Below are positions 1 to 32,208 of a DNA stretch of 41,399 nucleotides, piece by piece. Below the pieces are notes generated by a model. The model was not told the DNA's origin, ran no database searches, and worked only from the letters and a program-made list of their open reading frames with translations. Position 1 is the first letter of the stretch. Each line of letters starts with the position of its first letter. The position numbers and the translations under genes are program-made. Source of the DNA: Stramenopiles sp. TOSAG23-2 (lineage: Eukaryota); the NCBI GenBank assembly GCA_900128395.1, contig LT649302.1, forward strand, positions 1-41,399. The letters run 5' to 3'.

Positions 1-413
1 GAAATGTGTAAAAAAAAATAATAAAAAATTGTGTGTTAAAGTTAAAAAATGCAAACCTGGCAAAATAAAAATTTTCATAAAAATTTCTACGAGCTTCTCG
101 TTTTCATATAATATAATTTTTACGCACATAATTTATTGTTTTAATTTACTCATGTTGGAGTTATGTAGAAAAGCTGCTTCTTCATAAGGTTGTATGATAA
201 ATCACAATATAATTTTTTAAAAGAAAAGTTTTATCAAAAAATCATACTCGTACATGTATATATATATATATATATATTATAATATTCTTTACATTTTTAT
301 AAAAGGTAATATACACGTTCGCAGTGCGTTCGTATCACAAATCCATTTGACATACGAAGTTCGTAATTTCAAAAATTGAAACAAGAGGTGAGCGAAATTT
401 TTAATTTTTTTCG

Positions 414-661
414 ACAACTGGGAGAAAAAAAATGTTGTGTGCACGGCGCTTGTATATTATTTTTTACAGTTCCATTTTTGATTCACTTCTACCTAATTGA
501 ATCTCTTTTCGTTTAATTTCTCCAAAGTCAACATCTAACAACTGGGAGAAAAAAAATGTTGTGTGCACGGCGCTTGTATATTATTTTTTACAGTTCCATT
601 TTTGATTCACTTCTACCTAATTGAATCTCTTTTCGTTTAATTTCTCCAAAGTCAACATCTA
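414..661. repeat. Perfect head-to-tail duplication, 124-bp unit (414-537, 538-661), containing the 3' end of the MORN gene
   Basis: The ACAACTGGGAG...GTCAACATCTA block is read twice consecutively. Confidence 0.95.
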
Positions 662-1154
662 CTGGTGATTCATACTTCCCCATGAAGAAATCACCTTTCC
701 ATTCGACACCATCTGCATCAACATAAACGCCAAATCCGTGCCACTTTCCTTGCTCCCACTCTCCTTCGTATTTTCCAGTATTATTTGGTTGTATATATGT
801 TCCATTACCATGAAACATATTTTCATAAAAATCGCCTTCATATGAAGCACCACTTGCGAAAGTTATTTTGCCTTTCCCATTATACAAATCATTTGCAAAT
901 TCACCTTCATATTTTTCAACACCGTCATCATATATTCCCCACCCATCCCTAATTTTGTTCTCTTCCCCAGTCTCCTTATCTTTGATAATAACATATTCAC
1001 CATCATAATGTTTTCTTCGTATACTTGCATCAAGGCCTGTATTTTCAGCAAATTCAAAATATCCTTTTATACGGTTTACATTTGTAGTAGCAACTGTAGT
1101 ACCTACATTTTCGCTTACATTTTCTTGCAATAGTTGTTCTTCATCATCACTCAT
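588..1154 (-). CDS. MORN-repeat protein (188 aa)
   Basis: Repeated YEGEF/W-x(5)-G-x-G motifs: YEGEFANDLYNGKG, YEGDFYENMFHGNG, YEGEWEQGKWHGFG. Confidence 0.9.
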   Translation of the reverse strand: MSDDEEQLLQENVSENVGTTVATTNVNRIKGYFEFAENTGLDASIRRKHYDGEYVIIKDKETGEENKIRDGWGIYDDGVEKYEGEFANDLYNGKGKITFASGASYEGDFYENMFHGNGTYIQPNNTGKYEGEWEQGKWHGFGVYVDADGVEWKGDFFMGKYESPVDVDFGEIKRKEIQLGRSESKMEL

Positions 1155-1361
1155 ATTTACACTTTTTTTTTTTTAATTGCTATGATTTTTCTTGTGGCGG
1201 GGATACAAATTCAAAATATCCTTTTATACGGTTTACATTTGTAGTAGCAACTGTAGTACCTACATTTTCGCTTACATTTTCTTGCAATAGTTGTTCTTCA
1301 TCATCACTCATATTTACACTTTTTTTTTTTAATTGCTATGATTATTCTTGTGGCGGTGATA
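1049..1361. repeat. Near-perfect tandem duplication, ~157-bp unit (1049-1205, 1206-1361), duplicating the 5' end of the MORN gene
   Basis: The copies are identical except for poly-T length and two substitutions right after the poly-T in copy 1 (GATTTTT vs GATTATT; GCGGGG vs GCGGTG). Confidence 0.93.
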
Positions 1362-2201: not shown

Positions 2202-4983
2202 ATGCCAGGGCAATCAGTAATATATATGTTGAAAATAATTTTTATAATTTGTTTATTAACGAATGTAATTACGGGGCAGCCACAAACACCACCAACTACG
2301 GCTGCGAATAATGTAGCAAATAGCAAAATAACAAAAAATGCTGCTGCGCCAATATTAACAGATAAAAAGGCACCAGCACCAATAGCAAATGGTAATGTTG
2401 GTGTGACAGAATTTATTATGGATGGCGAAGTTGAAGATATACAATGGGTTGGTCAAGGACGACGTACAGTACTTGTATTAACAACTGCTTCAAACTTATA
2501 TCGCAGTTCTGATGAAGGCAAAACATGGTTAAACGTGGTAACTTCGTTAAAAGCATTTGGTACAAATCAACCAGCAAAAACGCCAAAAGTGAAAAAGTTG
2601 ATTGTATCCCCAGTAGATCCAAATTGCGTCTTTATAGTTGGCCAAGGTGTAAATCATTGGGTAACACGCGATGCCGGTCGTAGTTTTCAACCTGTGAATA
2701 GTGTTGTTAAATTTCACGACGTTATCATGCATCCAACTGATAAAAATCGCGTATTAGCGAGCAGTATGGCTGCTAAATGCCATGATACTCAAGCAAACGG
2801 TGTATGCTATAAATCCGTATATGCAACTGATGATCTTGGAAAAACCTGGATTAAAGCAACAGATTATGTTGTACAATTTGATTGGGCGCATAACTTAGGA
2901 AATGGACAGGCAAAAAGTTTACCAACTACTGCAATGTTTGCTACTGTATTTCGAACGAAAAAAGGTAATCAACGTTTTGGATATTGGGATAAAAATATCG
3001 ATTTTGTCCGTACAGATGATTTCTTTAAAACACCTGCGAAAGTTTTAGTGAAACATGGCAATCGATTTTTATTTACGAAGAAATTTTTATTTGTTGCGCA
3101 AGTGAATCCGTTAAGAGATACGGAAGTAGAGTTACAAATGAGCAGCGATGGTGCAAATACGTTCCTCAGGGGTACATTGCCTTACAAAATTAAACAACAT
3201 TCGTACACTATTTTAGATACATCGGAAGATACTGTATTTTTACATGTGAATCACGAAGGTGAAGGTGCTAAGTGGGGAAATGTGTACATTTCCAATGCAG
3301 ATGGTTTAAATTACACCTTATCGTTACCACATAATAGTAGGGAAGCGACTGGAAAATGCGATTTTGAAAAAGTAGAAGGATTAGAAGGAATATACTTAGC
3401 AAATTTCATTGACAAAGTTGGTGAGGATTCTGATGATACCACCGATGACAATACAATCGGTGGTGATACATCGACTAAAAAAAAAGCAAATTGGGAAAAA
3501 ACCTCCACCAAAGATACGAACAGTTATTACGTTTGATAAAGGTGGTGTATGGTCCTATTTGCATGCACCAAAATACGATGCGAATGGTAAAAAAGTTGAT
3601 TGTAGCAGCATTGATTGCTCCTTGCATTTGCATGGTGTCACGGATGAATGGGGGCCATTTTACAGCACCGACACATCCCTTGGTTTGATCATGGCTACTG
3701 GGAACATTGGGACATCTTTAAGTGACAATGAAGATGAAATCAATACATACTTTAGTAGAGATGCTGGATTATCATGGGATGAAGTAGCAAAAGGTTCCCA
3801 TATATATGAGTTTGGAGATCATGGTGCGTTGATCGTCATGGCAAATGACGTGGAAGCATCTGATACTGTTCTATATAGTTGGAACGAGGGTAAATCATGG
3901 TCACCATTTAAATTTTCAGAAAAAAAATTAGAGATTGATAATATAATTATTGAACCAACAGCAACATCGCAAAAATTTATGGTGTATGGATCAAGAAAAG
4001 CATCTGCCTCCGGTGATAAAAATTCAAACCCTGTTGGTGCAGTTTATTTCCTTGATTTCTCAGAATTGCATGCTAAAAAATGCAAGGGTGTAGAAGCACC
4101 TGGTACACCTGATAGCGATTACGAGCGTTGGTCACCAAGTGATGGTAGACTTGGAGATAAATGCTTGATGGGCCATCAAATAACATACACACGCCGTAAA
4201 CGCATGTCACAATGTTATAATGGGGAGAAATTAGATAGGATGAATTATGTTAAAGATTGCCCATGTACGGAGAATGACTATGAATGTGATGTTGGATTTT
4301 TCCGTAAAATAGATGGTGGACCTTGCACTAGAAGTGAATTTGGGAGTAGCAAGGAAGTGGTCAAAGCAAGTGGACAGCCACCTGCCAATTGCCCTTCAGG
4401 CACTACCTACCTTGTGACAAATGGTTATCGTAAAATTGCTGGTGATACGTGTGCTGTTTCTGGGGGTGTTGATCGAGATCCTACCGCTTTTCCTTGCCCA
4501 CATTGGACTACTACGGTCAGTCATGGAGGATGGCTAGTTCTTCTCCTTCTTTTTTGTTTAGTATGCGGTTTTGCTGGCATCACATTTAATAAAAATAAAA
4601 AAAATGCAGCGGCAAAACGATTTGATTATAGTTTTAGTAGCAATTTTAATAGTAGTGCCAGTGGTATATGTAATGGAATAATGAATCTTTTCAGTTGTTT
4701 AACTCGATGTTGTCAAAAAAGCGATGATTATTCAGGTTACAATGTAATCGGAAAAGGTAGCGCATTGCCTGAAAGTGCAATGGGATATGATACTTTTGAT
4801 GATGATCTTGGTAATGATGATGATGATCTTGATGATGATGACGATGATGACGATGATGAAGAAGATGCAGTGCCAATGCCAACACCAAAACATGAACGAT
4901 TAAAACCACTACCAAATATACCATTATCGACGGTACCAATACCGAAATTATCTGGGCCTAATGATGATGGTGATGACATATAA
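2202..4983 (+). CDS. VPS10: Sortilin/Vps10-family sorting receptor, split by a frameshift at the A9 run 3477-3485
   Basis: Signal peptide from ATG 2202, BNR/Asp-box repeats (SSDEGKTW, TRDAGRSF, TFDKGGVW, SRDAGLSW), Cys-rich 10CC module (CPCTENDYECDVGF), one TM helix, and a tail with YxxPhi-like (YNVI) and acidic motifs. ORFs 2157-3536 and 3409-4983 join as ...DTSTKKK/QIGKKPPPKIRTVITFDKGG. Confidence 0.92.
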
Positions 4984-5168
4984 AATTTTTACACACCATA
5001 TATGTCATATGATATGATATATATATATATACATATATTATATAAAATAAAAAAATACCGAGGAGATACATATTCGGGTTGTATCTTTTGTTGTGTGTAT
5101 GATATGAGAAGAGATTAATATATAAATACCGTACGAAGTATAACATTTAGTGTTTCTATTTAAAAAAA

Positions 5169-5468
5169 TTATTTTTTAGTAGACGCTTCATTTTGTAACT
5201 TTTCTTTTCTTGCTTCAATAACTTCATTCATAACATCTTTTAACTTGTCTTCATAAAATATATTACCAAAGTTATTATAAAAATGAGTATCTACAAGCAA
5301 TTCTTTTGCATTTTGAATATCTGGTTGTTGCATAGCATTCATATTAGTTGGTTCATCACTATAGTTTTCATACGAGCCACCACCACCACCACCACCTGGT
5401 GCAAGATTTAAAAGATCATGATTATTTTTATTTCCAGATGTATGGCTATGAGTAACAAAAGCATCCAT
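5169..5468 (-). CDS. Small acidic protein, possibly COP9 signalosome subunit 9 (CSN9/CSNAP)-like
   Basis: VDTHFYNNFGNIFYEDKL resembles the CSN9 F/D-rich motif (VHADFFNDFEDLFDDDD). The ORF runs ATG to TAA between AT-rich spacers. Confidence 0.5.
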   Translation of the reverse strand: MDAFVTHSHTSGNKNNHDLLNLAPGGGGGGGSYENYSDEPTNMNAMQQPDIQNAKELLVDTHFYNNFGNIFYEDKLKDVMNEVIEARKEKLQNEASTKK

Positions 5469-8016: not shown

Positions 8017-8069
8017 AAATCTTGGTTAGATTGCGAGGATTAACAAGAGATATAAAAATTTTCTCCTAC

Positions 8070-8231
8070 TCATGTATTAACAATATATTTTATTCCTGAG
8101 ATTGAGTATTGAGCGTAGTATTTATCACGGGAACTAAAATTATTACGAGTTCATGTATTAACAATATATTTTATTCCTGAGATTGAGTATTGAGCGTAGT
8201 ATTTATCACGGGAACTAAAATTATTACGAGT
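8070..8231. repeat. Perfect tandem duplication, 81-bp unit (8070-8150, 8151-8231)
   Basis: TCATGTATTAAC...TTATTACGAGT occurs twice. Confidence 0.95.
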
Positions 8232-8486
8232 ATAACTTACGTAGATTTTAACCATCAAGATTATTATACATATCATACACACACACACACGTGTGTATCG
8301 CTTCCTCGTATTTTTCTATTAAGGTGTCTCAAAATTGCTATTTTTTTCGTATCATATGACACGAAGCGTCGTATGATATTCGTATGCATACGTATATAAA
8401 TATATATAATATATATATATATGCTATTAATTACGAACCGCTTCGTAATATCTATCTCCTCTCTCTCGCTCGCTCTCTCTCTTTTC

Positions 8487-11400
8487 TTAATCTTCTTCCA
8501 TCTCTCCAAATTTTTCCACTAGCCTCTCATATTTTCGTTTAATAGCATTGGTTGTGCGTCTCGGATTTTTAAACGTTGCTGCACATGTTTCAAAAGAGTG
8601 CCCATTTTGAATTGCTGCAATCATGCGTTTCATTTGTCTCACCGTCCAGGAGTAATTTGCAGTTTCTTCTAATTGTTCATCTGTAGGATTCAACTTTGCA
8701 GTTCTCATTTTTTCATCTTTATCCTTTCTTCTTTTTAAGCTAAAAAGGTACCTTTTAAGCTTTGGGTATTTCTTCCCCAATCCTTTAAATTTATGATAAC
8801 AAAGCCTATATGTTTTTCCTAAAATTCTGCCTATTTCTTCAAAAGATTTTCCTTCTTTTCGCAATTTAACAAGTGTTTGGATTTGGCTTTTCTTCCAATC
8901 ATTTTTTTTACGGTATTTAACTTTATGTTTTTCGTTCAAAACTGCCTTCAATGTCTTCAAACTTAACGTTGGCACTTTTTTCAACATACGTCTAAATTTC
9001 AAAAAAATGGAATTGGGTGTTTTTTTCAGATGCTTGACTACATCATTAAAATGATAATGACATCTTGCTGCATTGACAAGATACCGAATATCTATTAAAC
9101 TCCAGGCATTAGTATAGGTCAAATCTGCTAAAATACTGTCATCGACTTTTTGAACCTCAGTTCTGCAAATATTTTGCCATATAGAATTGTCCGGTCCTTT
9201 GCTTCTTCTATTAGTTTTGATGTTATTGTCTTCATCATCGCTTTCCAGGTTGGTAGCATCTCTTTCAGTACTAGAATAGACAATATCTTCATCGTCTGAT
9301 GATATATCATCGTTCCACCTAGGTTTTCGAGTTGCTTTTCTATTTACTAAATCATCTGCACCATCATTTACATGTTTCCTAACGTGGTTATTTTTTTTGG
9401 AATAACCATTTCCTAAAACACGGATTTGATTTCGCTTGACATTCGTTCGACGCTCTCCATCATCAAAATCAATATCATATTTCACCCCACGAACTTTATC
9501 AACATAACCACGATGCCACGTTTTCCATTCATTCAGTTTAACCTTAATCCTCGTGCCAGCTTTAAGCCGCTCAGATTTTGGCCCCACGCCTTCCTCCTTT
9601 CCTTGCTCTGTGTAAAATTTGCAAGTATAATCGGATATAACATTTGGGTTCTCTTTATTCATTGATTCGATTTTAGTCAAAAGAAGATGCGAATCTTTAT
9701 GGACACTTCTTGCAATCATCAAAAGGCCTACTGACCTATCTGTTTGATATTTAATTTTTTTAACTTGCATTAAGTTCCACATTGCATTGACTGCAAATCG
9801 AAGATCACTATCTTTCAAATTCATTGGGTCACCTTGGCTGTATTCACCATGCGGGAGTGCATAAACATATTCAAGTGGTATTCTTTCCTCATGATCATCT
9901 TCATTATCATATGAAACTACAATTACACGATTGGGTATGTTGTAACGTACAATATGTGCACGGTACAAACCTGTGAAGGCATTATCCCGTTTGCCACAAT
10001 AAAAATATGGAACTGAAACGACATTCCCAATCACTACAGAATTACTTTGTAAATCCCTTACGCCAATTATTCTTAAACATTCAATAATGTCACACGGCAA
10101 AACTCTTAATTGTTGAATATCACCATCAGAATGTTTGAATTTCACTTTAAGAGTTCCATCATCATTCAACCGTTTTACTTTTGCTTCGTAAAACTCTTGA
10201 TATCCATCTAGACTAGCTTTCCTATATCGAGCATGTACAACTTTACCTACAAGCTTCTCAAGTTTCATTCCCACCATTTCGGACGCATAATGATAACATG
10301 ACATCGCTTCCATGTTTTGAACCCTAAACGCGTGTTCTTTTTGCGCCCGTTTGCAATACATTTTCCTAGTTCGAGCAGCAACTGCGTCTGCAGCTGTTAG
10401 AGTCGTCGTTGTTGTTGTCGTCGTCGTCGTTCTTGTTCTTGTAGTGGTAGTTGTTGGTGCTCTTATTGCTACACGTCGTGATGGCAATGATGCGGCGGAG
10501 TTCGTTCCAGGCATTTCAAGTTGCCGTAGTATTTCACTCCTACTTTTCTTGCGTGGGCGATTATCATACTTTACCTTACTACTACCATTACCCCCTACAT
10601 CCTTATCATACACAGTTGGATTAAATGATACAACCTGTTTGCGTTTTCGTTTTGTATTGCCACGAGTATTTTGAATTATATTGGATTCATCAATCTCTAA
10701 TGATTTTTTGCCAAAAGCATTGTTTGAAGCGGGCAGGTTAAAATCGCTACTTAATGCTTGCTTACTTGTATTGTCTTCGTATGTATCCCCAAACATTTGT
10801 GGTATTTTTTCCTTGACACGTTTTAACTTCACAATAAGAGCCTGTGGTGATCTTTTAAGTTGTTCGCATAGCTTCAAAATACATGTTCCATTTTTTGCAC
10901 CATTAAACAGCACTTTTAAATCTGTTAATGGCCAATGTTGTGTTGCAATACGACTTAGAAGCACCAAATCTAGTTTTCCATATGTACTTGATACAAAATG
11001 AGCCCAAGGTTCATTTTCTGTAAATTTTCGATTATTCATAGTTTTAAACCCCTTGCCTTTAACAACTGGAACTTTTCTATATTTTCGATTATTAACTGTT
11101 ATGCATTGATCAGTATTTTGCAAGTCGTTTTTATTGATATTGTTCCTACTGCTGCTGCTACCACTGCTGCGACTGGTACCATTCTGTAATGGTCGTTTAC
11201 TTGCTTGTGGTCCTCGCCTTATATAAATCGCAGGCGATTTCCTTACCATTGAATCAAAAAATCCAAGATCATCAAAACTTCGAGCAAACATTCTCCGATC
11301 TTTCTCAATCATTCTTCTTGTTTTTACTTGGCATGCTTGTTTTGACTTCGTCGGCAATGCATCGCTTATTTCGTGAAACGTGACACCTTTGTTAACACTA

Positions 11401-15056: not shown

Positions 15057-15645
15057 TATCTAGAAGAAACAAAAGGTGCCGTTTTATTTAAAATATATGT
15101 ATATACATAGCACAATATATATAGAATGTATTGTCTACGAATTCGTATATATATATATATTTACTATCATAGATATATGACCCGGTTTATCTGAGAGAGA
15201 CTTTCCAGTTGTCAAATAAATTTTTAGTATACTAATAAGTACAAATCACACATATTTTACTATCAAACCTCGTGCTTTATAATTCCTAGATCTCCCAAAA
15301 ATCATGAATTTTTGGAAAATTTGTGACATTTTTATTTTTAATCCAAGAAGATGATATAAACGCACTCTTGGAATTGAGCATTTTTATAAAGGGCACGACG
15401 GTGATTTTATACATATAAAGAATATTTTTTTTGATCAACAGAAAGTGAAATGACACAATGGTGAAGTTGTACAATAATGATATTATTTGCCTCAGTTAAA
15501 TATCATACGAACGTATGATATGCCTGTGAAATATTCTTTTGAAGAGTAGGGAATTATTTCATATTTGAGTAAATTAAAAAATAAAAACTATGTACGACAC
15601 ACTTCTCTATCCTCTTCCCGATTTTAGGCATGCTGTTCAGAGAGC

Positions 15646-19290: not shown

Positions 19291-19743
19291 ATGACAATAT
19301 TAAAACATGTACCCCGTATCATTCCACCACGTTTATTATATGTGCTTGCACAAATGGGACATGGTGACGAAATTGTTTTAGCAGATGCAAATTTTCCAGC
19401 TGCTTCAACTGCGCGAAATTGTGAGTTAATTAATTGTGATGCTGTTACCGTTCCTCAATTATTGAAAGCAGTTTGTACATTGATGCCACTCGATACATAT
19501 GCCTCGCCTGCTGCTGTTATGCAAGTAACGCCACAAGATCAAGGAAAAGTGCAAACGCCAGTATGGGATGAATTTAAAGGTATTATTGAAGCTTCAGAAG
19601 GAAGAAGCATTGAGTTGGAAGAGGTAGAAAGATTTGCATTTTATGAACGTGCAAAAACTGCACAATGTATAGTCTCGACTGGTGAATCAGCTTTATATGG
19701 TAATTTGATTCTAAAGAAAGGTGTGTTAGGGCCAGAAGAGTAA
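19291..19743 (+). CDS. FUOM: L-fucose mutarotase (RbsD/FucU family)
   Basis: Signature MGHGDEIVLADANFP, ERFAFYERAK and TGESALYGNLILKKGV; typical 150-aa length. Confidence 0.95.
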   Translation: MTILKHVPRIIPPRLLYVLAQMGHGDEIVLADANFPAASTARNCELINCDAVTVPQLLKAVCTLMPLDTYASPAAVMQVTPQDQGKVQTPVWDEFKGIIEASEGRSIELEEVERFAFYERAKTAQCIVSTGESALYGNLILKKGVLGPEE

Positions 19744-19752
19744 ATATATATA

Positions 19753-19782
19753 GAAGTTCGTATAATTCGTACGAACTTCGTA
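19753..19782. promoter_or_regulatory. Representative TACGAA/TTCGTA dyad cluster between convergent genes (candidate 3'-end or boundary element)
   Basis: GAAGTTCGTA-N7-TACGAACTTC inverted repeat overlapping TACGAA-C-TTCGTA. The same dyad occurs at 353, 8432, 15136, 31985 and 32099. Confidence 0.5.
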
Positions 19783-19864
19783 ATTTTTGTGTGTGTAAAA
19801 ACGTTATATTAAAATATATACATTTTTTGAAATATTATGTGTGCATATGAAATATTTTTTTTAT

Positions 19865-20917
19865 TTAAAATACATTTAACCTGCCACTATTTTTATTTGT
19901 TGTTCTTGTCACCATACTCATATTTTTTTGCAACAATAATTCGATATTAGGAGATACAATTAATCGTTCCTGTATGTCTCCCATCCGTTCAAATTGACCA
20001 TTTTTCACATCTATATGAACCATCTCACGATACGTATGAACTGATGGTCCTTTTGTAACATCAAACACATACTGACCAATTACAAGTTCCATTTTACCAG
20101 ATTTATAACGACGTAATTTTCCCATGTTGCCTGATGGCAATTGATTCAAAAATTGTTCCTTACCAGATGATATTTTAGTAGCTCCTTGACCTACAAATTG
20201 TGCTTGTTCATCCTTAACACCATTATTTGTATCATTTTGATTTTCACTTTTTGCTCTACTTCTACCGCCTTTTCCTTTTGATTTGTTGTTATTGTCATTT
20301 AAATCATTATTTGAATTGCCATTTTTCATATTATTATTATTATTTGCTTCGTTCTTTTTACTATTATTATTATTGTTGTTCCTGTCTGTCGTATTACCAT
20401 TAAATATTGCTTTCACATGGGGCAAAGGTGGTAATTGAATTAAAAACAGTCCATCATTTTCCAGCAGGTTTTTTGTTTCATCTGAATGTTTTTCTGCATT
20501 GTCGTTTGATGTATTGTTATTATTATTATTGTCATCATCGTCATCATCATCATCATCATCATCAATAATCATTGTTCTTTTGTTTCTCTTTTTTTTCTTA
20601 CCGCCTATTTTCTTATTGTTATTATTATTATTATTATTTTTATTACGGTCAGAAATTTCATTTTTAGTTTGACTTGGAATACATAATGGTGAATATTGAG
20701 GAGCATTTTGTACTGGTGGAGGCCATTGTACTACATTCGATGTGGAGCGTTCATTTTTAATTTGATTTGCCCTTGCATTTTCTTCCCTTTGTTTCTTACT
20801 AATACGTTTTTTCTTCTTTTTACCACTATTAGTATTAGGTGAAAGATTAGAATTATTATTATTATTATCAGTGGAGGGAGATGATTTATTATATCTACTC
20901 GATTTTCTTCTCGACAT
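19865..20917 (-). CDS. POLR3D: RNA polymerase III subunit RPC4/C53
   Basis: LFLIQLP motif and the C-terminal GNMGKLRRYKSGKMELVIG..FDV..G..RLIVSP domain, preceded by a low-complexity N-terminus. Confidence 0.88.
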   Translation of the reverse strand: MSRRKSSRYNKSSPSTDNNNNNSNLSPNTNSGKKKKKRISKKQREENARANQIKNERSTSNVVQWPPPVQNAPQYSPLCIPSQTKNEISDRNKNNNNNNNNKKIGGKKKKRNKRTMIIDDDDDDDDDDDNNNNNNTSNDNAEKHSDETKNLLENDGLFLIQLPPLPHVKAIFNGNTTDRNNNNNNSKKNEANNNNNMKNGNSNNDLNDNNNKSKGKGGRSRAKSENQNDTNNGVKDEQAQFVGQGATKISSGKEQFLNQLPSGNMGKLRRYKSGKMELVIGQYVFDVTKGPSVHTYREMVHIDVKNGQFERMGDIQERLIVSPNIELLLQKNMSMVTRTTNKNSGRLNVF

Positions 20918-21435
20918 ATTATGCGCGTATATCTATTTATTGCAAAGCTTTTTTCAACAATTTACGTAATATTATTTTTCGATGAATTTGTCTACAAGTG
21001 TTTGATGTATTCAACTTGTGTGTGATCTATTTGATCTACAAGTATATGCGAGTATGTGTATAATACATCTCTTGATCTATTATTATTAATTGAATTAATG
21101 TATAAGAAGATGACGACTGGTGGGTGATTCAGGAACCAGAACCAATAAAAGCTAGTGCAACACAAACCCTTAAACTAGAGTGGATCTACCTTAAACGTTA
21201 CCAGGTATGACAAATAATATATTTTGATATTACATACACTCTGTATACATTTTACCACATTTTCAAGAATATATACAAACATACATAGATATATTATAAT
21301 GTACAATTTGTTAAATCTACATGCAGGAAAATAAATAACGATACATAGATTAGAGTTAATCAAATACATATTTTATTATAATATATATCACATTATTCAG
21401 AATTTTTTTATATAAAAGAAAAACAAATAATAAAA

Positions 21436-22176
21436 ATGAAATCGATTATTACCATGTATATGTACTACCTTTCTATTATTATTACTACTTTGATGATACT
21501 AATAATAAAAATGAATACTGTATATGGACGAGAATTAGATCCAGAAATGTATGTACCAGATCCAAATGCACCGGAAGAAGAAATGCCAGCAGAATTTAGT
21601 GAAGATATTGAATGGGAAAAAGCACATGAAAGTTCTAATTTAGCGTTAGGAATGGCATGTTTGTATGGCGAAACAGATATGGTACGTGAAGCATTAGTAA
21701 ATGGACAAATGTTAGAGATGGATCATAGTGGCTTTGCAATTCTTTCTGAACATGAGCCATTTCATCATTCCAAAAAAAAAATCATGTATGATCGTGACTG
21801 GAGATTTCATCATAAAAATGAATTGAATGACACCTGCTTGCATCGTGCTGTTATGAGTAGGGAATACGACATTGCTAAATTGTTATTGGAACATGGATGG
21901 GATCCAAATGCGGTTGATAAAAATGGACATACACCGTTGGATGTAGCCCATTCACGACACGATGAACTTCTTTCACATTTATTAGAGGATCGTGGAGCTT
22001 TAGCAGAGCATCATCGTAGAAATATGGATAAATTTCGAAGACACAAGGAAGAACATACTCGAATAAGAGTGGATCATCATGAAAGGTTTGCGCATCAACA
22101 TATGCATGAACATGCTGAACATGGGGCACCAGACCATGGTCATTGGAGAAAAAATGCTAAGAAAATGGATCTTTGA
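21436..22176 (+). CDS. Secretory-pathway ankyrin-repeat protein with a His-rich tail (246 aa)
   Basis: Hydrophobic N-terminus, ankyrin motifs DTCLHRAV..LLLEHGWDPNAVDKNGHTPLDVA, and a His-rich C-terminus. Confidence 0.85.
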   Translation: MKSIITMYMYYLSIIITTLMILIIKMNTVYGRELDPEMYVPDPNAPEEEMPAEFSEDIEWEKAHESSNLALGMACLYGETDMVREALVNGQMLEMDHSGFAILSEHEPFHHSKKKIMYDRDWRFHHKNELNDTCLHRAVMSREYDIAKLLLEHGWDPNAVDKNGHTPLDVAHSRHDELLSHLLEDRGALAEHHRRNMDKFRRHKEEHTRIRVDHHERFAHQHMHEHAEHGAPDHGHWRKNAKKMDL

Positions 22177-22389
22177 AAGGGTTTAAATACTGAACGATAT
22201 TTTGATAATAAAAAAAATACATTTTTTTTATTTATAACTGCTGAAGGTTCGTATATATTTTTTATATAAAAATATTTGTATATATATATAGAGAGAGATA
22301 CTTCGTATTAATTATTATTATTAAAAAATATAATATATAATATATATATATATATATAAAACAGAAAAACGAATATGTTGGAAGGATAG

Positions 22390-22564
22390 AAACCTACTTG
22401 TGCTTGTAGAGTATGCATATTAGTTTGCAGAGGTGCATTAGAGCTTTACTATATGCATAGTAGGATAGCATATTATTCTTGCGATTGAGTAATATTGAGC
22501 ATATTACTTAACACGAGAAGTGTTAAAATATTATTATAACACTTAGATTTTAACCATTAGTTAT
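22390..22564. repeat. Diverged dispersed repeat homologous to ~7974-8264
   Basis: Collinear shared blocks: AAACCTA, TTAG.TTGC..GAGG, TATTC.TG.GATTGAGT, ATTGAGC, CACG.GAA, TATAAC, TAGATTTTAACCAT. Confidence 0.7.
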
Positions 22565-22917
22565 AAAATAGGAAAAATATTTTTTTGAAAAATATTTTTT
22601 ATTTTTACAGGACGTGCACTTTAACATATAAAATTTTATTTACGTACACACTCGAGACAGTATTTTTTCCATCTGCCAAGTAATACATTTAATTAAATAT
22701 TTAAATAAAATATCATATTTAATATTTTAAATATTAAAATATTACAAAATGTATTTCACACCCATCAATTAATGCATGCATATTCGCACAAATAATCCAT
22801 ACCACACCATTTACAAATGATAAAAATCATTCATTTTTTTGTGTGTTTTCTAAAAAATTATAAATATTTATAGTTCGGATTTTTCTCCTCTCCTTTTTTG
22901 AATACCCAACCACTTTT

Positions 22918-23997
22918 TTAATAATCAACATTATTCCAAACACTATCTTTAGCAAATTTCCATTCTACTGGGCCAACGATTTTTCCATCTTCAAATCTAC
23001 CTTTAAATGAATCTCCATTAGGCAATAACATTCTCCCAATTCCATGACGTCTGCCATTATTAAAATTACCTTCATAAACATAACCCGAACTAGCACATGT
23101 AAAAATGCCTAATCCAGAGCGAGAATCATCAACCCAATTTCCCTCATATCTATTTCCATTTGCAAACGTTAATGTGCCTCTTCCATTTGCCATATCTCGT
23201 GCCCATTCTCCTTCGTAACGATCTTGATTTTTATATTGTAAAATACCATCTCCACTTTTTACACCATTGACAAAATTTCCTGTATAAGTATCACCTGATC
23301 GATATTTTAATACACCAAAACCAGATGCACGATCAGTTTTCCATGAGCCTTGATACACGTCACCGGATACATATGTTAACTTTCCTTCCCCTTCTTTCAC
23401 ATCATTTTTAAAATCACCTTCGTATATATTGGAATTTGGAAATACATATTTTCCTTTTCCAGACATTTTTGAGTCTTCCCATTCACCTTCATATATACCT
23501 CCATCTTGGTATTGATAACGACCAAAACCTGCCATTTTACCACCTGCCCATTCACCTTCATATGCTTCAACTGGATTTCCAGATTGATCTACATATGTTA
23601 CTTTTCCACTACCTTCTCGTTTGTCGTTATTCCATTGTCCCGAATATACATCACCACTTGCATAGGTATATGTCCCTATTCCATGCATTTTACCATTATT
23701 CCACTGTCCATCATATTTATCTCCATCCGAGAAAAACAATGTGCCTTGCCCATCAATAATGCCATTTTTCCAATTGCCAACGTACCTATTACCATTACTA
23801 TAAATTGCTTCTCCTTGACCATCAATTTTATCATCCCTAAACTCACCCGTATATTGACCACCATCTACATAAAAATATGTTCCCATTCCATGCCTACGAC
23901 CAGCAACCCATTGTCCTTCATATATTTCATTATTTGCATAAACCAATTTGCCTTTCCCGTGCATCTGGCCCTCTTTAATCTCACCGGTATACTGCAT
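22918..23997 (-). CDS. MORN-repeat protein (359 aa, ~14 repeats)
   Basis: Continuous 23-aa YEGxWxxGxxxGxG repeats. Confidence 0.93.
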   Translation of the reverse strand: MQYTGEIKEGQMHGKGKLVYANNEIYEGQWVAGRRHGMGTYFYVDGGQYTGEFRDDKIDGQGEAIYSNGNRYVGNWKNGIIDGQGTLFFSDGDKYDGQWNNGKMHGIGTYTYASGDVYSGQWNNDKREGSGKVTYVDQSGNPVEAYEGEWAGGKMAGFGRYQYQDGGIYEGEWEDSKMSGKGKYVFPNSNIYEGDFKNDVKEGEGKLTYVSGDVYQGSWKTDRASGFGVLKYRSGDTYTGNFVNGVKSGDGILQYKNQDRYEGEWARDMANGRGTLTFANGNRYEGNWVDDSRSGLGIFTCASSGYVYEGNFNNGRRHGIGRMLLPNGDSFKGRFEDGKIVGPVEWKFAKDSVWNNVDY

Positions 23998-24259
23998 CTT
24001 TCCACAGTCAGTTCTCTCTCTTTCTTGTCCTTTTTATTAGAACTGTAATTGACATTATTCTTGTAACAACAATTAATTCTGTATGAGTACATCTAAATTC
24101 AATCAATCATATAATATATATACTTTTATAACTGTAAGTAAAGATGGATGGATTATTGATGGTGTTTGCAATATTGTGTGCATGCTATTAGTATTATATA
24201 GGAAATTGGTAGTTTTAGAATAATAATAGTATGAGATGATTTTAGTTTTATTTATTTTT

Positions 24260-25859
24260 TTAATGATGATCTTGAAAATGTAAATCCAATGGAATATCAT
24301 TACCGGCATCAACAAATCCAACTAATAACATTCGTTTGCCATTTGTAATTTCATATCCACCATGACGAAGTTTACCACTATGAATTAACACATCACCACG
24401 TTGTATAGTATATACTTTTCCATATACACCTTCCATTTTTACTAAATTAGTAGTAATATCATTTTCATTGTTCTTGGTAATAATCATATTGTTTTGTACA
24501 ACTTGATCTTGTTCAAAAAATGTACCACCACCAACAAAATCATTTTCTGAATTTAATAAAACATTGAATGAGATAACAGAACCATCACGGTGTATACCAA
24601 CTGATCGTTGTTGTGGTTCCTTATTTCTTTCTGCATCATGCGCATCCTTTACATCGAGACACGCCGTAGTAGTGTTATTATGCTGATTATTATTATTATT
24701 ATTATTTTTATTAATCGCATCATCTGATGCATTGTAATAAACAAAAAATAAATCACGAAATTTAAATGTATCCACTGCAAATTTATGATTTTTACTTAAA
24801 ATTGGAAATAAACGATTTCGCAATATATTTTTCAACCATTTGTCTAATTCAGGCATTTTATTAACACGAACATCTGTAGTTGCATAACCACGATGACGAT
24901 CACTTAACCATCCATTTTTATTTGTATATTCTTTGACACCTTTCAATAAATAATCACATTCTTCAAATGTAAATTGTTGTTTTAATGAATATGGAATTTT
25001 CAAAGATGGATGTATTGACCACATTTTCTTAATACGTTTATTACCATTTTCATAATCACATTTACGTTTTTTCGTTAACCATTCTGTCGTATAACATAAA
25101 TTGTTTTTGGAACACTTTTCAGGGGTGTTATCTTTATTTCCTGTTGTTGATTTCATTAATGGTGATGACGATGACGACGATAATAAGAAATTTAAACTAT
25201 TTGTATGTTTATGCATTGCTGCTAATATTGCTGGTGTATTTTCATCCCAATCAATAACATTTACATTTGCACCATAATTATTTACCAATATTTCTATTAC
25301 TTCACATCCTTGTGGTTCACTTGCTAATGCTGCAAAATGAAGAAATGTTTTACCACCACCTTGTATACTTTTCATTTGCAATTGTAAATCAATAGTCGTT
25401 GTATTATTTAAAAACTTTGCAAATGTATTTTCATCTGATATTTGTTTTTTCATTTTTATTACCTTGTATACTTTTCATTTGCAATTGTAAATCAATAGTC
25501 GTTGTATTATTTAAAAACTTTGCAAATGTATTTTCATCTGATATTTGTTTTTTCATTTTTATTAAAATGGCCTGAACTAAATTTACCATACCATATTCAC
25601 ACGCATAATGTAATGGGCGATATCCATAATCATGCCTGACATTATAATCTACATCTACTCCATTATTTACTATATCGCATGCCAAATCTTCATCATATAA
25701 AGATGTTGCGTATATAATAGGTGGCAAACCTTTTATTGTTTTCTCTTTCAAACTGACTTTATTTTTTATTAAATTCAATAATTCTTCTTCATTTTCAATA
25801 ACAGTGGAACGAAGACTATCATCATTACTATTATTACCATCATTAGCGATTGATGTCAT
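24260..25859 (-). CDS. Ankyrin-repeat + Fe(II)/2-oxoglutarate dioxygenase (PLOD/prolyl-hydroxylase-like), interrupted by a 103-bp duplication
   Basis: Ankyrins RPLHYACEYG, KTFLHFAA and NTPAILAA. Oxygenase motifs YATTDV, HRD (HxD), FNVLLN..DFVGGGT, RHGGYEITNGKR. Removing one repeat copy fuses ORFs 25431-25892 and 24260-25453. The first ATG is at 25859. Confidence 0.87.
25358..25563. repeat. Perfect tandem duplication, 103-bp unit (25358-25460, 25461-25563), frameshifting
   Basis: ACCTTGTATAC...CATTTTTATT occurs twice, and KMKKQISDENTF...SIQG appears in both ORFs. Confidence 0.96.
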
Positions 25860-26580: not shown

Positions 26581-27372
26581 TCAAAGAGAAATCAAATATG
26601 TTTTAAGAATGCAAAAAGAGACAAAACAAAACAGGAACAGGAACAGGCAAAAAAAAAAGAAGTTGAAAGAGTGAAAGAACAGAAGAAACGAGCAGCTGAA
26701 AGAATCAAACAACAAAAGCGACAGCAATTAGTCCAGGAGATGCAAGAGCGAAAGCGTAAACGTGAGGCAAGGCAGAATTTGTGTAATGCAAAACAGAATT
26801 CCCAAAATGCTGCGAAGAGGAGACGTATAGCTTCAAATGAGTCTAATAATACTACCAGTGGTAGAGGAGAGGCTTGGACATTGTTGGAAGATGCGATACT
26901 TATTAATTGGCATAGTGATGGAGTCAGTGGAAAAGACATGGCAAAATACATGTTGTGGAGAACATACTCAGCTGCAAAAAGCAGATTTCATTCAATCCGT
27001 CATAACAGTCGTGCTATATTGGAAAGAGCGATGAAAAAATTGAATGTTGGCTATCGTCCATATTCAGAGAAAGAAGATGCTTTGCTTCTTGCTATGAGAC
27101 AAGAGAATCTTTCATATACGCGAATATGTAATTGGATGAAATGGCGCTCAGTTTCTTCACTACAACAACGTGTTGTTAAATTGCGACAAGAAGCGCCTTC
27201 AAGCTCTTTAATCGTTGGTAGAGGAAGGCCAAGATTAAACTGGGGGCGTTGCTAGATGAGAGGATGTGGTAGTGGTGATGTAGTAACTACAGGCGCTCAT
27301 GGAACACAACCAAATCTACGTTATAAATTTCGTTGCAATGCGTGTAATAGTACCTGGATGGGATTGCCTTAA
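26581..27372 (+). pseudogene. Coiled-coil + two Myb repeats + AT-hook + C4 zinc ribbon gene, with an in-frame TAG at 27253-27255 and an unclear 5' end
   Basis: Myb repeats WTLLEDAIL.. and YSEKEDALLL.., then GRGRPR. The frame continues C*MRGCGSGDVV...KFRCNACNSTW to TAA 27372. It is open from 26581, with the first ATG at 26740. Confidence 0.65.
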
Positions 27373-27472
27373 TTCGAATTTAAATGAGAACAGCTTAAAA
27401 GTACTTCATCAGTATATTTTAAATACAAGCATAATATAAAAATACTAATATCCCTCTTTCCAACTTTCTCTC

Positions 27473-28852: not shown

Positions 28853-29362
28853 TCTATTATATATCTTGTCTCACTTTTTTATTAATATGTGTGTAAATAT
28901 ATATATTGCAATATCTTTATACTTTTACTGTGATAAAAATATACATACATACATTCAAATATACAGTAGTGAAACCAAATATAAGATCTATTTATTGTGG
29001 TGGTTAAATTTAGTAAAATATTAAATATAATACCAATGATATTCCCTTGTTAAATAGACGCTACTTTTTACACACATCATAATCAAGTAATCCGATCCAA
29101 AAAAGTACGCGACAAAAAAATGAATGAATGTAGTAAAGATATAGGTAAACTATAGTAGTATATCCAACAAAACTTTTATATATTGATATACATCACGTTT
29201 TAATATATAATAGTAGAAATCATCATGGTATAATATATGTAGAATATAATTCATAATACATATATATTTATGTACGTCGGATAGTAGAACCAATAAACCA
29301 CGAGGATACGTATACAGTGATATATAAACGCAAAGAAAAGTAAATACGAAAATAAAAAAACA

Positions 29363-31888
29363 ATGGGAAAGAAAAAAAATAAAAAGAAAGATGCAGAAAA
29401 AAAAGAAAAATTAAAAGCAAAAAAAGCTGCAAAATTAAATAAAAAACAAACAAAGAAGCAAAAAAAAGCAGCGAAAGAATTAGGGGAAGAACATATTGAT
29501 AGTTTAGTAAAAGAATTCAATGTAACAAATATGGATGAAGATAAAAAAACAAACGTTGTCATTAAAGAAAATGTTTCACGTCCTGGGCCTAGATGCTATG
29601 CTAATTTTACTGCATTACCTACTGGAGAAATATGTTTATTTGGTGGTGAATATTTCGATGGAAAAGGAACATATAATTATAATGATTTATATTTCTACAA
29701 CCCAACAACGGAAACATGGCGTACGGTGACATCTGATTATTGCCCAGCTCCACGATCATCACACCAAGCTGTTGTATATCGCGAACATATGTACATATTT
29801 GCCGGTGAGTTTGCAACTACAAATCAATTTTATCATTATAAAGATTTTTGGCGTTTTCATGTTGGTACGAATAAATGGGAATTATTGGAAGCGAAAGGTG
29901 GTCCATCACAACGTAGTGGTCATCGAATGGTAGTATGGAGAAATTTTATATTAGTATTTGGTGGTTTCTACGATGTATCAAGGGAAATGAAATATTACGA
30001 TGATTTACATGTTTTCTGTACACGTGAATTGAAATGGAGAAAAATGGAATTTGATCCATTAAAACCAAAACCAAGTGCAAGAAGTGGTTGTGGATTTGCT
30101 GCACATCCATCAAAAGATGAAGTTTTTTTATATGGTGGATATACAGAAGTGCGAGTTGGGCGTGTATTGACACGTGGTCGTTGTTCCTCTGAAATTTGGT
30201 GTTTGAAATTGAATCCAGGAAGAAATTTAAAAGATTTAAAAATGAGCTGGAGTCGCTTATCTCGTAAAGGTTCTGCACCAGTTGAACGTAATTCATTTGC
30301 ATGTACTGTTCATAAACGACGAATGTTATTTTTTGGTGGTTGTGATGATAATGATTTACAAGAAGAAATACAAAGTGATTTTTTCAATGATGTACATGCT
30401 TTTGATATGGATTTAGGACGATTTTTTAAAATTGAATTACGTGGAAATAAATCCAAGAAAAAAAAGAACAAAAAAAAGAAGAAAGCGAAAAAAGTAAAAG
30501 ATGAAGAAGAATCTGGTACAACGGTAATCATACATTCTGATTCAGATGACGACGACGAAGAAGAAGATGATGATGATGATGATTTTGATGAAGAAAAAAT
30601 ATTGGATGGATATGATGATTTAGATGATAATAAATTTTATTATATGGTAGATGGTGTTATTATGGAAATGGATTTGGATAATTTGAGCGATGAGGAAGAA
30701 GAGGAACAAGTTGAACAAGATGACGATGATAAAAAAAAAGAGAGTGATAAAACTGAAGTTGTTTCAGGCACAGATAATGATAAGGATGATAATAATGGCA
30801 ATAATGATGGGAAACCAAAAGCTATTGAAGATGATGAAGAAATTCCAACATTGGTAAAACTTACAGATGACGAAAAAGTGAAAACAGATGATATAGCTAT
30901 TGAATTAACAAATGAGGATGACAAAGTTGATGACAAAATAAAAACAAATGTGATAGAAAATGTCAACAATGACAACAATAAGAATGATAATGCAAAGTCT
31001 TCAAAAGCAGAAATAACCAAAGAAGAACCAAATGCCATTGAGCCGAGAAAACGATTTAATTCTTCAATTTGTTCCTCAGGTAATAATTTGTACGTATGGG
31101 GTGGCATGTGGGAAGAAAAGGATAAACGCTTCACATTAGATGATATTTGGGCATTGGATATGGTAAAATTAAAAGAATGGAAACCATTATTAGAAAGTAC
31201 GGATGCTGGATTAAAATGGCAAGGTAGTGACGATGAATGGGAAGATATGGAAGATGAAGACGGCGACGGGGAGAATGGAGGAGGCAATTATGGAGATGAT
31301 GGAGATGATATGACAGATGAGGATGATTACGATAGTCAAGAGGAGGAGAAAGATGCGGAAACATTGGAAAAAGAAAAGAAAGAATTTGAAGCAATGAGCA
31401 AAGATGAAAAAGCAGTAGTATTGGCATTGAAACAATTGAAAAAATTAAAGAGAAGTGGATTTGTTTTTGGTGGCGGATCATCAAGACGTTCAAAATCAAA
31501 CGTAGAAACTAGTAATTTAATGCATACATTAGGTTTGTCAGATGCATTATCAACACCTGACATAAAAGAGAAATTACGTGATTTCTTCCTTCGCACTGCT
31601 GATCATTGGCTACAAGTTACGGCAAATAATGAAATTGTTAAGTATGGGCGTATGTCTGGTAAAGAATTAAGACGTTTAGCATTTGAAGCATGTGAGAAAC
31701 GCTTTACAACGATGAAGCCATTATTAGATCGACTTGATATATTAGAACAAGAACAACGATTAGCAGAGGCGAAAGCATCTGCGATGTCTGGGAAACAAAT
31801 GAAAAAAAAGAAAAAAGGCTTAACACGAGAAGAGAAAAAAGCATTGAAAAAAGCAAAAAAAAAGAAAGCGAAGGAGCTCGGAGAGTAA
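29363..31888 (+). CDS. KLHDC4: Kelch domain-containing protein 4 (Kel3-like) with a C-terminal DUF4110-like domain
   Basis: MGKKK start, kelch blades (LFGGEYFDG, PAPRSSHQAV, PSQRSGHRMV, PSARSG), an acidic insertion before the last blade, and LRDFFLRTADHW..KELRRLAF. Confidence 0.92.
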   Translation: MGKKKNKKKDAEKKEKLKAKKAAKLNKKQTKKQKKAAKELGEEHIDSLVKEFNVTNMDEDKKTNVVIKENVSRPGPRCYANFTALPTGEICLFGGEYFDGKGTYNYNDLYFYNPTTETWRTVTSDYCPAPRSSHQAVVYREHMYIFAGEFATTNQFYHYKDFWRFHVGTNKWELLEAKGGPSQRSGHRMVVWRNFILVFGGFYDVSREMKYYDDLHVFCTRELKWRKMEFDPLKPKPSARSGCGFAAHPSKDEVFLYGGYTEVRVGRVLTRGRCSSEIWCLKLNPGRNLKDLKMSWSRLSRKGSAPVERNSFACTVHKRRMLFFGGCDDNDLQEEIQSDFFNDVHAFDMDLGRFFKIELRGNKSKKKKNKKKKKAKKVKDEEESGTTVIIHSDSDDDDEEEDDDDDDFDEEKILDGYDDLDDNKFYYMVDGVIMEMDLDNLSDEEEEEQVEQDDDDKKKESDKTEVVSGTDNDKDDNNGNNDGKPKAIEDDEEIPTLVKLTDDEKVKTDDIAIELTNEDDKVDDKIKTNVIENVNNDNNKNDNAKSSKAEITKEEPNAIEPRKRFNSSICSSGNNLYVWGGMWEEKDKRFTLDDIWALDMVKLKEWKPLLESTDAGLKWQGSDDEWEDMEDEDGDGENGGGNYGDDGDDMTDEDDYDSQEEEKDAETLEKEKKEFEAMSKDEKAVVLALKQLKKLKRSGFVFGGGSSRRSKSNVETSNLMHTLGLSDALSTPDIKEKLRDFFLRTADHWLQVTANNEIVKYGRMSGKELRRLAFEACEKRFTTMKPLLDRLDILEQEQRLAEAKASAMSGKQMKKKKKGLTREEKKALKKAKKKKAKELGE

Positions 31889-32208
31889 AAAAAGAGAAAA
31901 GTTTTTTTGTTTATTTTTTATTTTATCTTATGCATCGACATAATAAAGATGGTTAAAATCTTATATATTTTTTTTTAATATTTTTACGACTTCGTAAAAC
32001 ATTAAAATATATACTCCTTACACACGAAACCCCCCCTGTATGTTTTTGATTTACACACACACACACGTGCATAAAATATCACGGAAACATATTCGTATTA
32101 CGAAGGTTCGTACGTATCATATCATACGGTACATGATATTTAATTTAAATATAAAAAAATATAAACCTGCTCAGTATAGCTTGATTTCTGTTTTTATATT
32201 TTCTCAAT

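Follow-up and report, generated by a model that had tools for sequence, protein, structure and literature searches.

Genes of the locus and distribution of the palindrome

A stretch of 41,399 bases of contig LT649302.1 from Stramenopiles sp. TOSAG23-2 (referred to as the window, at its full length) was analyzed for a short palindromic element, the dyad TACGAA-N-TTCGTA, which recurs downstream of stop codons. The window is AT-rich, with a G+C content of 27-41% per 2-kb step, and carries tightly packed, intron-poor genes on alternating strands. Pfam families scoring above the curated cut-off were assigned to 12 of the 23 gene models based on open reading frames (ORFs), including sortilin/Vps10, HDAC, Kel3-like Kelch, RPC4, RbsD/FucU, MORN, ankyrin and UBA. 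Relatives of the sortilin protein were observed in protist transcriptome and genome entries (55-64% identity) and in the SAR protists Amorphochlora, Blepharisma and Pyrodinium (46-52%), and a protein atlas search returned nothing beyond these. For the HDAC, one entry of 98% identity and two of 63-70% were found in assembled environmental data, with nothing close in named genomes. Judged by their sequences, the genes of the window are cellular eukaryotic genes, predicted to be nuclear genes of an uncultured marine protist. Words of the locus were found in public runs of three sorts, namely metagenomes from the sea, marine metatranscriptomes selected for poly(A) and a small number of small DNA runs. 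For related strains or species, 62-78% of these words were present. Since 20-32% of the words sampled from positions 14000-23999 were present in four poly(A)- or oligo-dT-selected RNA runs, genes of the locus appear to yield polyadenylated RNA.

Exact dyads of the form TACGAA-N(0-8)-TTCGTA were counted five times in 41.4 kb, compared to an average of 0.03 over 100 dinucleotide-preserving shuffles, each of them with fewer than five; a sixth, variant dyad reads TACGAC-TTCGTA (Table 1). A preliminary description of the same DNA, made from the letters alone, had listed these dyads, and all of them were recovered, as were the variant at 31985 and the listed half-sites and variants (5132, 15506, 22248, 22302, 36296, 40775, 40936 and TACGAG, present twice at about 40914-40925). 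Its statement that all dyads lie 3' of stop codons was borne out on the ORF map for six of six, the variant included. Four of the exact dyads are located in convergent spacers and one in the 3' flank of the first gene, the partner of which lies outside the window.

The half-site TACGAA/TTCGTA occurs 23 times in 3779 nt of convergent or 3' spacers, the 3' flank of the first gene included (6.1 per kb), versus three times in 6615 nt of divergent spacers (0.45 per kb; at 17383, 18906 and 29345), once in 2639 nt of tandem spacers (0.38 per kb) and 21 times in 28366 nt of coding sequence (0.74 per kb). Its density in convergent and 3' spacers is 14-fold that of the other spacers, and among all 6-mers enriched in convergent versus other spacers it takes second rank (23 versus 4, Fisher p=1.8e-9) behind AAAAAT/ATTTTT; TCGTAA, TTCGTAT and TTCGTAA are likewise enriched. 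The comparison of spacer classes and dinucleotide shuffles that the preliminary description had suggested, run within the window, shows enrichment in convergent and 3' spacers. The restriction to 3' spacers that it had claimed applies to full dyads and does not extend to half-sites, which occur in coding sequence at background density and three times in divergent spacers.

As a stricter null, a first-order Markov model was trained on the convergent spacers themselves and used for 1000 simulations. Half-sites numbered 23 versus 3.6 expected (maximum of the simulations 10), dyads five versus 0.007 expected and the looser form TACG-N(0-10)-CGTA nine versus 0.67 expected. For the whole window, 13 instances of the looser form were obtained versus 2.3 expected; by our own count, 10 of 14 such instances fall within convergent spacer, which makes up 9% of the window. 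Furthermore, the observed/expected ratio of CpG is 1.60 in convergent spacers versus 0.65-0.87 in coding, divergent and tandem DNA, and 53% of the CpGs in convergent spacers reside within TACG/CGTA. This excess, together with mild depletion elsewhere, argues that the word is maintained and not decaying.

In order to obtain an outside control, 596 kb of DNA over 80 unrelated metagenome loci were searched and contained no dyad, so that the dyad is no generic property of DNA. These 80 loci originated from a metagenome scan with the HDAC alignment; all of them encode distant HDACs (29-40% identity), and no relative of this organism was among them. A genome contig collection yielded no HDAC protein match, and a 22-base composite pattern gave one chance match there, in Pedobacter. 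In a viral contig collection, four queries retrieved only distant MORN proteins in giant-virus bins, those without dyads, and the composite dyad pattern matched 65 loci, none of them resembling this organism.

A TACG/CGTA palindrome is present within 150 nt after the stop codon of 10 of the 23 genes, at distances of 16-131 nt, versus none of 22 genes within 150 nt before the start codon (Fisher p=0.0006). The earlier observation that divergent spacers are devoid of full dyads was confirmed. In the 320-nt convergent spacer, two palindromes were found, each 97 nt from the stop of its own gene, and the two of the 589-nt convergent spacer have stop distances of 80 and 131 nt. The 121-nt convergent spacer contains a single cluster common to both genes, and a tandem spacer carries one palindrome 103 nt past a stop. 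The layout is one element per gene in long convergent spacers and one common to both genes in short ones, and the position of the element follows stop codons rather than spacers. Altogether, seven of the nine 3' spacers in 41 kb bear the element, some of them two, corresponding to about one per 6 kb. A confinement to convergent spacers is true of the consensus dyad and fails for the element class, which includes the tandem palindrome at 33866-33883.

Table 1. Palindromes, half-sites and hairpins of the element class in the window, their distance from stop codons and their predicted RNA folds
Feature	Position (strand)	Sequence or arrangement	Distance from stop codon	Fold energy (kcal/mol)	Fold z
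Exact dyad	353-365	TACGAA-G-TTCGTA	223 nt past stop of MORN gene 588-1154(-)	-5	-0.75
Extra half-site	329-334	TTCGTA, beside dyad 353-365			
Isolated half-site	5132..5137 (-)	CCGTACGAAGTAT	149 nt past sortilin (+) stop, or 32 nt in sense past stop of doubtful 99-aa ORF 5169-5468(-)		
Everted palindromes	8346..8392	TTCGTA-N8-CACGAA (8346-8365); CGTA-TGCA-TACG (8381-8392); 12-bp hairpin 8349-8379			
Exact dyad	8432-8447 (8430..8449 with extended arms)	TACGAA-CCGC-TTCGTA; arms extended to 8 nt (ATTACGAA/TTCGTAAT)	40 nt past stop of 1737-aa gene 8487-13700(-)	-6.3	-3.0
Exact dyad	15136..15147	TACGAATTCGTA, spacer 0	80 nt past stop of 14439-15056(+)		-0.66
Palindrome	15500..15521	ATATCATACG-AA-CGTATGATAT; 10-nt arms, core TACG..CGTA; second, gene-proximal element of 589-nt convergent spacer	131 nt past stop of HDAC 15646-17301(-)	-11.6	-3.9
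Cluster of four half-sites	19753..19782	Includes exact dyad TACGAA-C-TTCGTA (19770-19782); 121-nt convergent spacer	10-39 nt past FucU-like (+) stop, 83 nt past RPC4-like (-) stop	-14.2	-3.9
11-bp hairpin	19753-19779	GAAGTTCGTAT/GTACGAACTTC, within cluster 19753..19782			
Isolated half-sites	22248, 22302 (+)	TTCGTA; partial partners alone (GAAGG-TTCGTA; ATAC-TTC-GTAT)	In sense, 72 and 126 nt past stop of 21436-22176(+)		-0.93
Variant dyad	31985-31996 (31982..31999 with outer pairs)	TACGAC-TTCGTA; 3 extra outer pairs TTT/AAA	97 nt past stop of Kelch gene 29363-31888(+)	-7.1	-3.6
Cluster	32092..32128	TTCGTA-T-TACGAA-GG-TTCGTA, then everted pair CGTA-N8-TACG			-0.74
Exact dyad of that cluster	32099-32112	TACGAA-GG-TTCGTA	97 nt past stop of 32209-33426(-)		
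Related palindrome	33866..33883	ACATACG-TGTG-CGTATGT; 7-nt arms, TACG..CGTA core; tandem spacer	103 nt past stop of UBA gene 33983-34627(-)		-0.77
Overlapping palindromes	36291..36316	TACG-GTT-CGTA and TACG-N9-CGTA	37-46 nt past stop of 35109-36254(+)		-0.65
Half-sites	40775, 40936 (40775..40941, -)	TACGAA	40936 in sense, 61 nt past stop of last gene 41002-41399(-)		+0.12
Everted palindrome	40912-40923	CGTACGAGTACG	79 nt past stop of 41002-41399(-)		

Symmetry, core and predicted folding of the element

The orientation of half-sites was evaluated in 20000 simulations in which the number of half-sites per spacer was fixed, while position and orientation were randomized. Inverted pairs at a spacing of 0-4 nt were observed five times versus 0.24 expected, a number reached in none of the simulations (P<5e-5); everted pairs occurred twice versus 0.35 expected and direct pairs once versus 0.48 expected. 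Inverted and everted pairs can form hairpins and direct pairs cannot, and since the opposite-strand pairs are the favored ones, symmetry itself matters. These results show that the inverted arrangement goes beyond mere clustering and that inverted symmetry is under selection.

A broader palindrome with the core TACG...CGTA and arms of 6-10 nt encompasses the dyad as its most frequent form. Complementarity extends outwards from the TACG core by 14 pairs in sum versus 4.2 expected (P=0.005), and the extending bases vary by site, namely ATT/AAT (8432), TTT/AAA (31985), ATATCA/TGATAT (15506) and ACA/TGT (33869). Sites lacking the inner AA/TT pairs carry outer pairs instead, so that the total arm measures 6-10 nt in eight of nine sites. 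This extension by non-conserved bases provides covariation-like support, the nearest to covariation that one window can give. A nine-site MAFFT alignment placed the arms of several sites wrongly, and explicit palindrome counts were therefore used in place of a covariance model. TACG cores are separated by anything from 2 to 8 nt (0, 1, 1, 2 and 4 nt between full half-sites), a variation that a loop would tolerate. Predicted RNA fold energies range from -5 to -14.2 kcal/mol over the 10 folded sites, and longer hairpins built on the same words are found at 19753-19779 and 8349-8379. The palindromic element is real, strongly non-random and associated with 3' ends, with evidence of selection on pairing; its function is what we infer from these properties.

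A further palindrome, TCATACA-TA-TGTATGA at 39078-39093, is located in a tandem spacer 103 nt past the stop of an HMG-box gene (fold z -3.4). It is like the CATACG...CGTATG palindromes in shape and distance, with both CpGs swapped for CA/TG and pairing kept, and may be a compensated variant of the element or a chance product of TA-rich sequence.

Candidate identities and other features of the window

Known elements were compared with the palindrome. No Rfam family, including the histone stem-loop, matched at gathering score in the whole window, and when two spacers were scanned with permissive Rfam settings, the one match was to a miRNA model, at 20 bits and attributable to chance. The mimivirus early promoter AAAATTGA was not enriched (9 observed versus 10.7 expected). 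By eye, the heat-shock element GAAnnTTC fits the site with a 2-nt spacer only. The bases 5' of TTCGTA are not conserved as the Pol III B-box GGTTCGA would demand, and the half-site differs from that of the bZIP A-box TACGTA. The preliminary description did not recognize the dyad as a described eukaryotic element, and a full-text literature search, which covered main texts, likewise returned no paper in which TACGAA/TTCGTA or UUCGUA serves as a motif of 3' ends, terminators or insulators; matches for the motif words were loxP sites, primers and siRNAs only. Within the searched part of a preprint on marine protist single-cell genomes (10.64898/2026.04.17.719054), no words beginning with 'palindrom' or 'motif' occur.

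Other sequences also recur in the spacers. Three exact copies of the 13-mer AGATTTTAACCAT, at 8243-8255(+), 22545-22557(+) and 31949-31961(-), are all located in convergent spacers. In two spacers (about 8090-8255 and 22479-22557), this 13-mer ends a conserved element of approximately 85 nt, showing 63% mean column identity in a four-row alignment and no Rfam match, which may represent the gene of a small RNA or, alternatively, a mobile element of small size. Moreover, the 3' spacers share a second vocabulary, in which words resembling TATGATATGA (GTGTGTATGATATGA) adjoin runs of (GT)n/(CA)n, at 5093-5110, 40717-40735, 8268-8285(-), 32113-32128, 15500-15521 and 8352-8378. TATCATA/TATGATA was counted 16 times in convergent versus 9 times in other spacers, and ATGCATA 11 times versus once. 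In a 2-kb ORF-poor stretch between the HDAC and FucU-like genes, 50-nt inverted repeats at 18479-18528 and 19041-19090 are 98% complementary, 512 nt apart and MITE-like, with a TTAA start; between them lies a 36-nt perfect palindrome (18966-19001) with a 16-bp stem that holds ATACG...CGTAT. Tracts of (TA)n directly 5' of start codons, e.g., at 17849-17886, 34620-34658, 24113-24150 and 254-290 (an example being ...TATATATGTAAAGATGAATG), suggest that promoters are TATA-like and 5' leaders very short.

Tandem duplications of 103-177 nt with 97-100% identity were observed at 414-661, 1049-1330, 1503-1762, 1945-2192, 11639-11992, 25358-25563 and 41039-41399, and further ones of the same kind at about 8060-8225 and 40563-40700. 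Their appearance suggests artefacts of assembly or amplification, the alternative being that they arose very recently. The copy at 25358-25563 (103 nt, no multiple of 3) splits an ankyrin gene into two overlapping ORFs, and that at 11639-11992 is in frame and repeats 59 aa. No dyad lies inside any of them, and some distances are distorted by them; with the exact 124-nt duplication at 414-661 counted, the first dyad and its stop are 223 nt apart, a distance that would shrink to 99 nt if this duplication is an artefact. The sortilin/Vps10 gene is likewise read as two overlapping ORFs in different frames (2202-3536 and 3433-4983), which points to a short intron, an error of sequencing or a frameshift near 3433-3536.

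A candidate signal for transcript 3' ends

The reading that is tentatively favored here, at less than even confidence, regards the element as a signal by which the 3' ends of transcripts are formed or transcription is terminated, in the shape of a sequence-specific stem-loop usable on both strands. A signal for the 3' boundary of transcription units, with base pairing as a relevant property, is suggested by the constant core, the variable loop length, the extension of symmetry by arbitrary bases, the single copy per gene at about 40-130 nt past the stop and its joint use in very short convergent spacers. The nascent transcript would fold into a small stem-loop at the palindrome, the conserved UACG/CGUA pairs of which would be read by a protein, and this protein would trigger or position cleavage, polyadenylation and polymerase release. 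Since the element is its own reverse complement and forms the same hairpin on both strands, one copy could serve both genes of a tight convergent pair, and in longer spacers each gene would have a palindrome copy of its own. Three points are inferred by us: formation of the hairpin in RNA rather than in DNA, its recognition by a protein and the ending of transcripts at the element. The preliminary description had proposed a bidirectional termination or 3'-processing hairpin. Of this proposal, the tie to 3' ends, the absence on the promoter side and the two-fold symmetry carry statistical weight, and the choice of a hairpin over a roadblock is made by indirect arguments.

Several observations weigh against the stem-loop signal. 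The link between the element and RNA 3' ends is positional, and all evidence originates from one 41-kb window that includes several exact tandem duplications, possibly assembly artefacts. The gene map represents our own reading of ORFs without annotation, in which 22 ORFs and one doubtful 99-aa ORF make up the 23 models. In 13 of the 23 genes, among them the two that flank 27256-27472 and all but one of the five with a tandem 3' end, no palindrome lies within 150 nt of the stop, which is unlike a universal poly(A) signal expected at all genes. Fold z is below -3 in five of the 10 folded sites, the remainder being indistinguishable from shuffles, and the hairpins are small with short stems. Of the isolated half-sites, eight are in sense and four in antisense to the nearest gene, which is no significant bias (p=0.39), and a signal of purely structural nature would not usually have a constant stem sequence. 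Furthermore, the rarity of the element in tandem spacers favors a DNA roadblock over the hairpin: consensus dyads occur in none of the five tandem spacers, in which factors bound to the promoter of the downstream gene could do the job.

According to the roadblock explanation, which is considered unlikely, a protein bound to the dyad as a dimer or as two monomers would halt RNA polymerase II from both sides and thus prevent collisions and antisense read-through, acting as an insulator. The constant arm sequence and the confinement of full dyads to convergent spacers or the 3' flank of a gene are in line with it. Moreover, proteins can read such a dyad, as provirus loci with a fixed-spacer form look, in our reading, like repressor operators: most of the 25 loci tabulated from the 65 IMG/VR loci matching the dyad pattern carry TACGAA-ATT-TTCGTA (AAT on the other strand) at two sites approximately 235 nt apart. 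The low-GC provirus loci with this two-site layout (L082, L083, L087, L090, L091 and others) are unrelated to the window. The hairpin is preferred over the roadblock because of the variable spacing, the symmetry extended by non-conserved bases and the one-element-per-gene layout of long spacers. The variation in spacing, accompanied by everted arrangements, departs from a fixed geometry and would rotate the half-sites by up to about 140 degrees, which is unfavorable for a rigid dimer, and a protein site would not need symmetry beyond the core. In long convergent spacers one roadblock would suffice, yet two elements are present, one near each gene, and a related palindrome lies at a like distance from the stop in a tandem spacer. 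It is improbable that the palindromes lack a function and merely represent hairpin-prone debris collected in the least constrained spacers, such as excision footprints (TA + CGAA..TTCG + TA), template-switch products or decayed small mobile elements. Convergent spacers are indeed rich in short inverted repeats (53 per kb, compared to 24, 13 and 3.8 per kb in divergent spacers, tandem spacers and coding sequence, respectively) and harbor other recurrent elements, namely the 13-mer, the 85-nt element and microsatellites, and the variable junction of 0-4 nt resembles, in our view, end-joining footprints. On the other side, among 334 TACGA...TCGTA pairs 40-6000 nt apart none has related inner ends, the best pairs being alike in low complexity only, and the mean best identity of the 30-nt flanks of the six dyads is 0.336 versus 0.344 +/- 0.059 at random spacer positions. 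With unrelated flanks and no related inner ends, the dyads are not pieces of one repeat or MITE family, which disposes of the fragments of one transposon family that the preliminary description had named as the case against its proposal. A donor element leaving TA-CGAA..TTCG-TA footprints was absent from the 41-kb window, although the dyads may be footprints of an element residing in another part of the genome. Neither isolated half-sites nor clusters of three or four resemble footprints. CpG words would be expected to decay where the CpG ratio is 0.65-0.87, yet they are 1.6-fold over-represented here, and the narrow range of stop distances and the one-per-gene layout argue for constraint.

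Quite improbable as well is a linear RNA motif, i.e., single-stranded UUCGUA (or CGUA[A/U]) in the 3' untranslated region, bound by a protein as an auxiliary polyadenylation or stability element, with dyads arising from the needs of two genes in a short spacer. Thirteen of the 23 half-sites in convergent spacers lie outside perfect dyads, TTCGTA occurs in sense at most 250 nt past the stop in 12 of the 23 genes, and the extended words TCGTAA, TTCGTAT and TTCGTAA are enriched, in favor of this explanation. A canonical eukaryotic poly(A) signal, be it an AAUAAA-type hexamer or a lineage variant, would be expected in sense 10-30 nt 5' of the cleavage site in most genes. Independent placement would, however, result in similar rates and broad spacing of inverted, everted and direct pairs, which differs from the 5/2/1 counted versus 0.24/0.35/0.48 expected; outward complementarity is left unexplained, and the 8:4 sense bias of isolated half-sites is not significant. 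Another chromosomal function favoring convergent intergenes, such as a replication-origin element or a site of cohesin/condensin loading or stalling, is highly improbable. In budding yeast, origins and cohesin peaks favor convergent intergenic regions, and the element is sequence-specific and intergenic; but at about one per 6 kb it is far denser than known origin spacing, and it follows stop codons instead of spacer centers.

For the stem-loop signal, the closest analogue in logic would be the 'hairpin rule' polyadenylation signal of Mimiviridae, reportedly described by Byrne et al. in 2009. In the portion of the literature source consulted (PMC4402537), this signal consists of hairpin-forming palindromes at gene 3' ends instead of a linear consensus, within an AT-rich compact genome, and is defined by structure without sequence-level conservation. 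Both systems share a hairpin-forming palindrome at gene 3' ends (here 10 of 23 stops versus none of 22 starts) that can in principle serve both strands, as is proposed for the present element. In the viral system, the poly(A) tail is added at or within the hairpin, and the genome context comprises the early promoter AAAATTGA and a cluster of viral RNase III and poly(A) polymerase. Unlike the viral signal, the present core is constant (TACG/CGTA, usually TACGAA/TTCGTA) with stems of 4-11 bp, the genes are cellular eukaryotic ones (sortilin, RPC4, HDAC) and AAAATTGA is not enriched. Because of its constant core, which departs from a definition by structure only, the element is no member of the Mimiviridae class. 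A palindromic motif of Medusavirus shows the opposite distribution, being located at promoters in 22 of 115 divergent versus none of 88 convergent intergenic regions, as far as the excerpted source states (PMC8557863).

The 3' stem-loop of histone mRNAs, bound by SLBP, has a 6-bp stem, a 4-nt loop and a conserved stem sequence, lies tens of nt past the stop and directs 3' cleavage; it is confined to histone genes, gives non-polyadenylated mRNA and is no perfect DNA palindrome used on both strands. The present element is similar in size and position and differs in flanking unrelated housekeeping genes, none of them a histone, and in its lack of an Rfam match. Roadblock terminators comprise yeast Reb1 for RNA polymerase II, TTF-I/Nsi1 for RNA polymerase I and mitochondrial mTERF/DmTTF at the boundaries of convergent units; their sites are longer, asymmetric and of fixed geometry. 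They share with the present element a sequence-specific site where opposed transcription meets, which in those systems can stop polymerases arriving from either side. Variable spacing, symmetry extended by non-conserved bases and, in long spacers, a separate element for each gene set the palindrome of this window apart. Intrinsic terminators are prokaryotic and need a T-run after a G+C-rich stem, a combination found at only two of the nine palindrome sites (19753-19779 and 36298-36314). Termination words of yeast are degenerate and A/T-rich, for example the self-complementary TATATA. Bacterial REP elements and intrinsic terminators are described, in the accessible part of a preprint, as short extragenic palindromes at gene 3' ends, often between convergent genes (bioRxiv 10.64898/2026.03.23.713779). 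For the bidirectional termination zones of budding yeast, in which convergent pairs end their transcripts within a common short spacer, the available sections of the corresponding preprint describe no CpG-bearing dyad with a variable spacer (bioRxiv 10.1101/2022.11.02.514956). Palindromic 3'-end signals are already known as a kind, and the present element differs from the viral rule by its constant core, its short stems and its cellular genome.

With a defined gene-end palindrome of 12-16 nt, the 3' boundaries of genes could be annotated by rule in the fragmentary assemblies obtained for this lineage from single cells and metagenomes, and a compact bidirectional terminator part would become available. 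To our knowledge, it is poorly understood outside yeast how convergent transcription is stopped within 100-600 nt in compact eukaryotic genomes, and we know of nothing on how it stops in the uncultured picoplankton dominating the sea. If the element were a DNA roadblock instead, it would represent a new class of boundary element for nuclear RNA polymerase II, one restricted to convergent genes. Provided that the hairpin is where transcripts are processed, hairpin-directed polyadenylation would not be confined to giant viruses. The stronger proposal of a cellular nuclear 'hairpin rule', in which a UACG...CGUA mini stem-loop (usually UACGAA-N-UUCGUA) replaces or dominates the linear AAUAAA-type signal and serves as a bidirectional terminator common to convergent genes, is regarded as doubtful. 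Should it be true, the element would be the cellular counterpart of a signal hitherto described from giant viruses, and one would have to ask who borrowed from whom.

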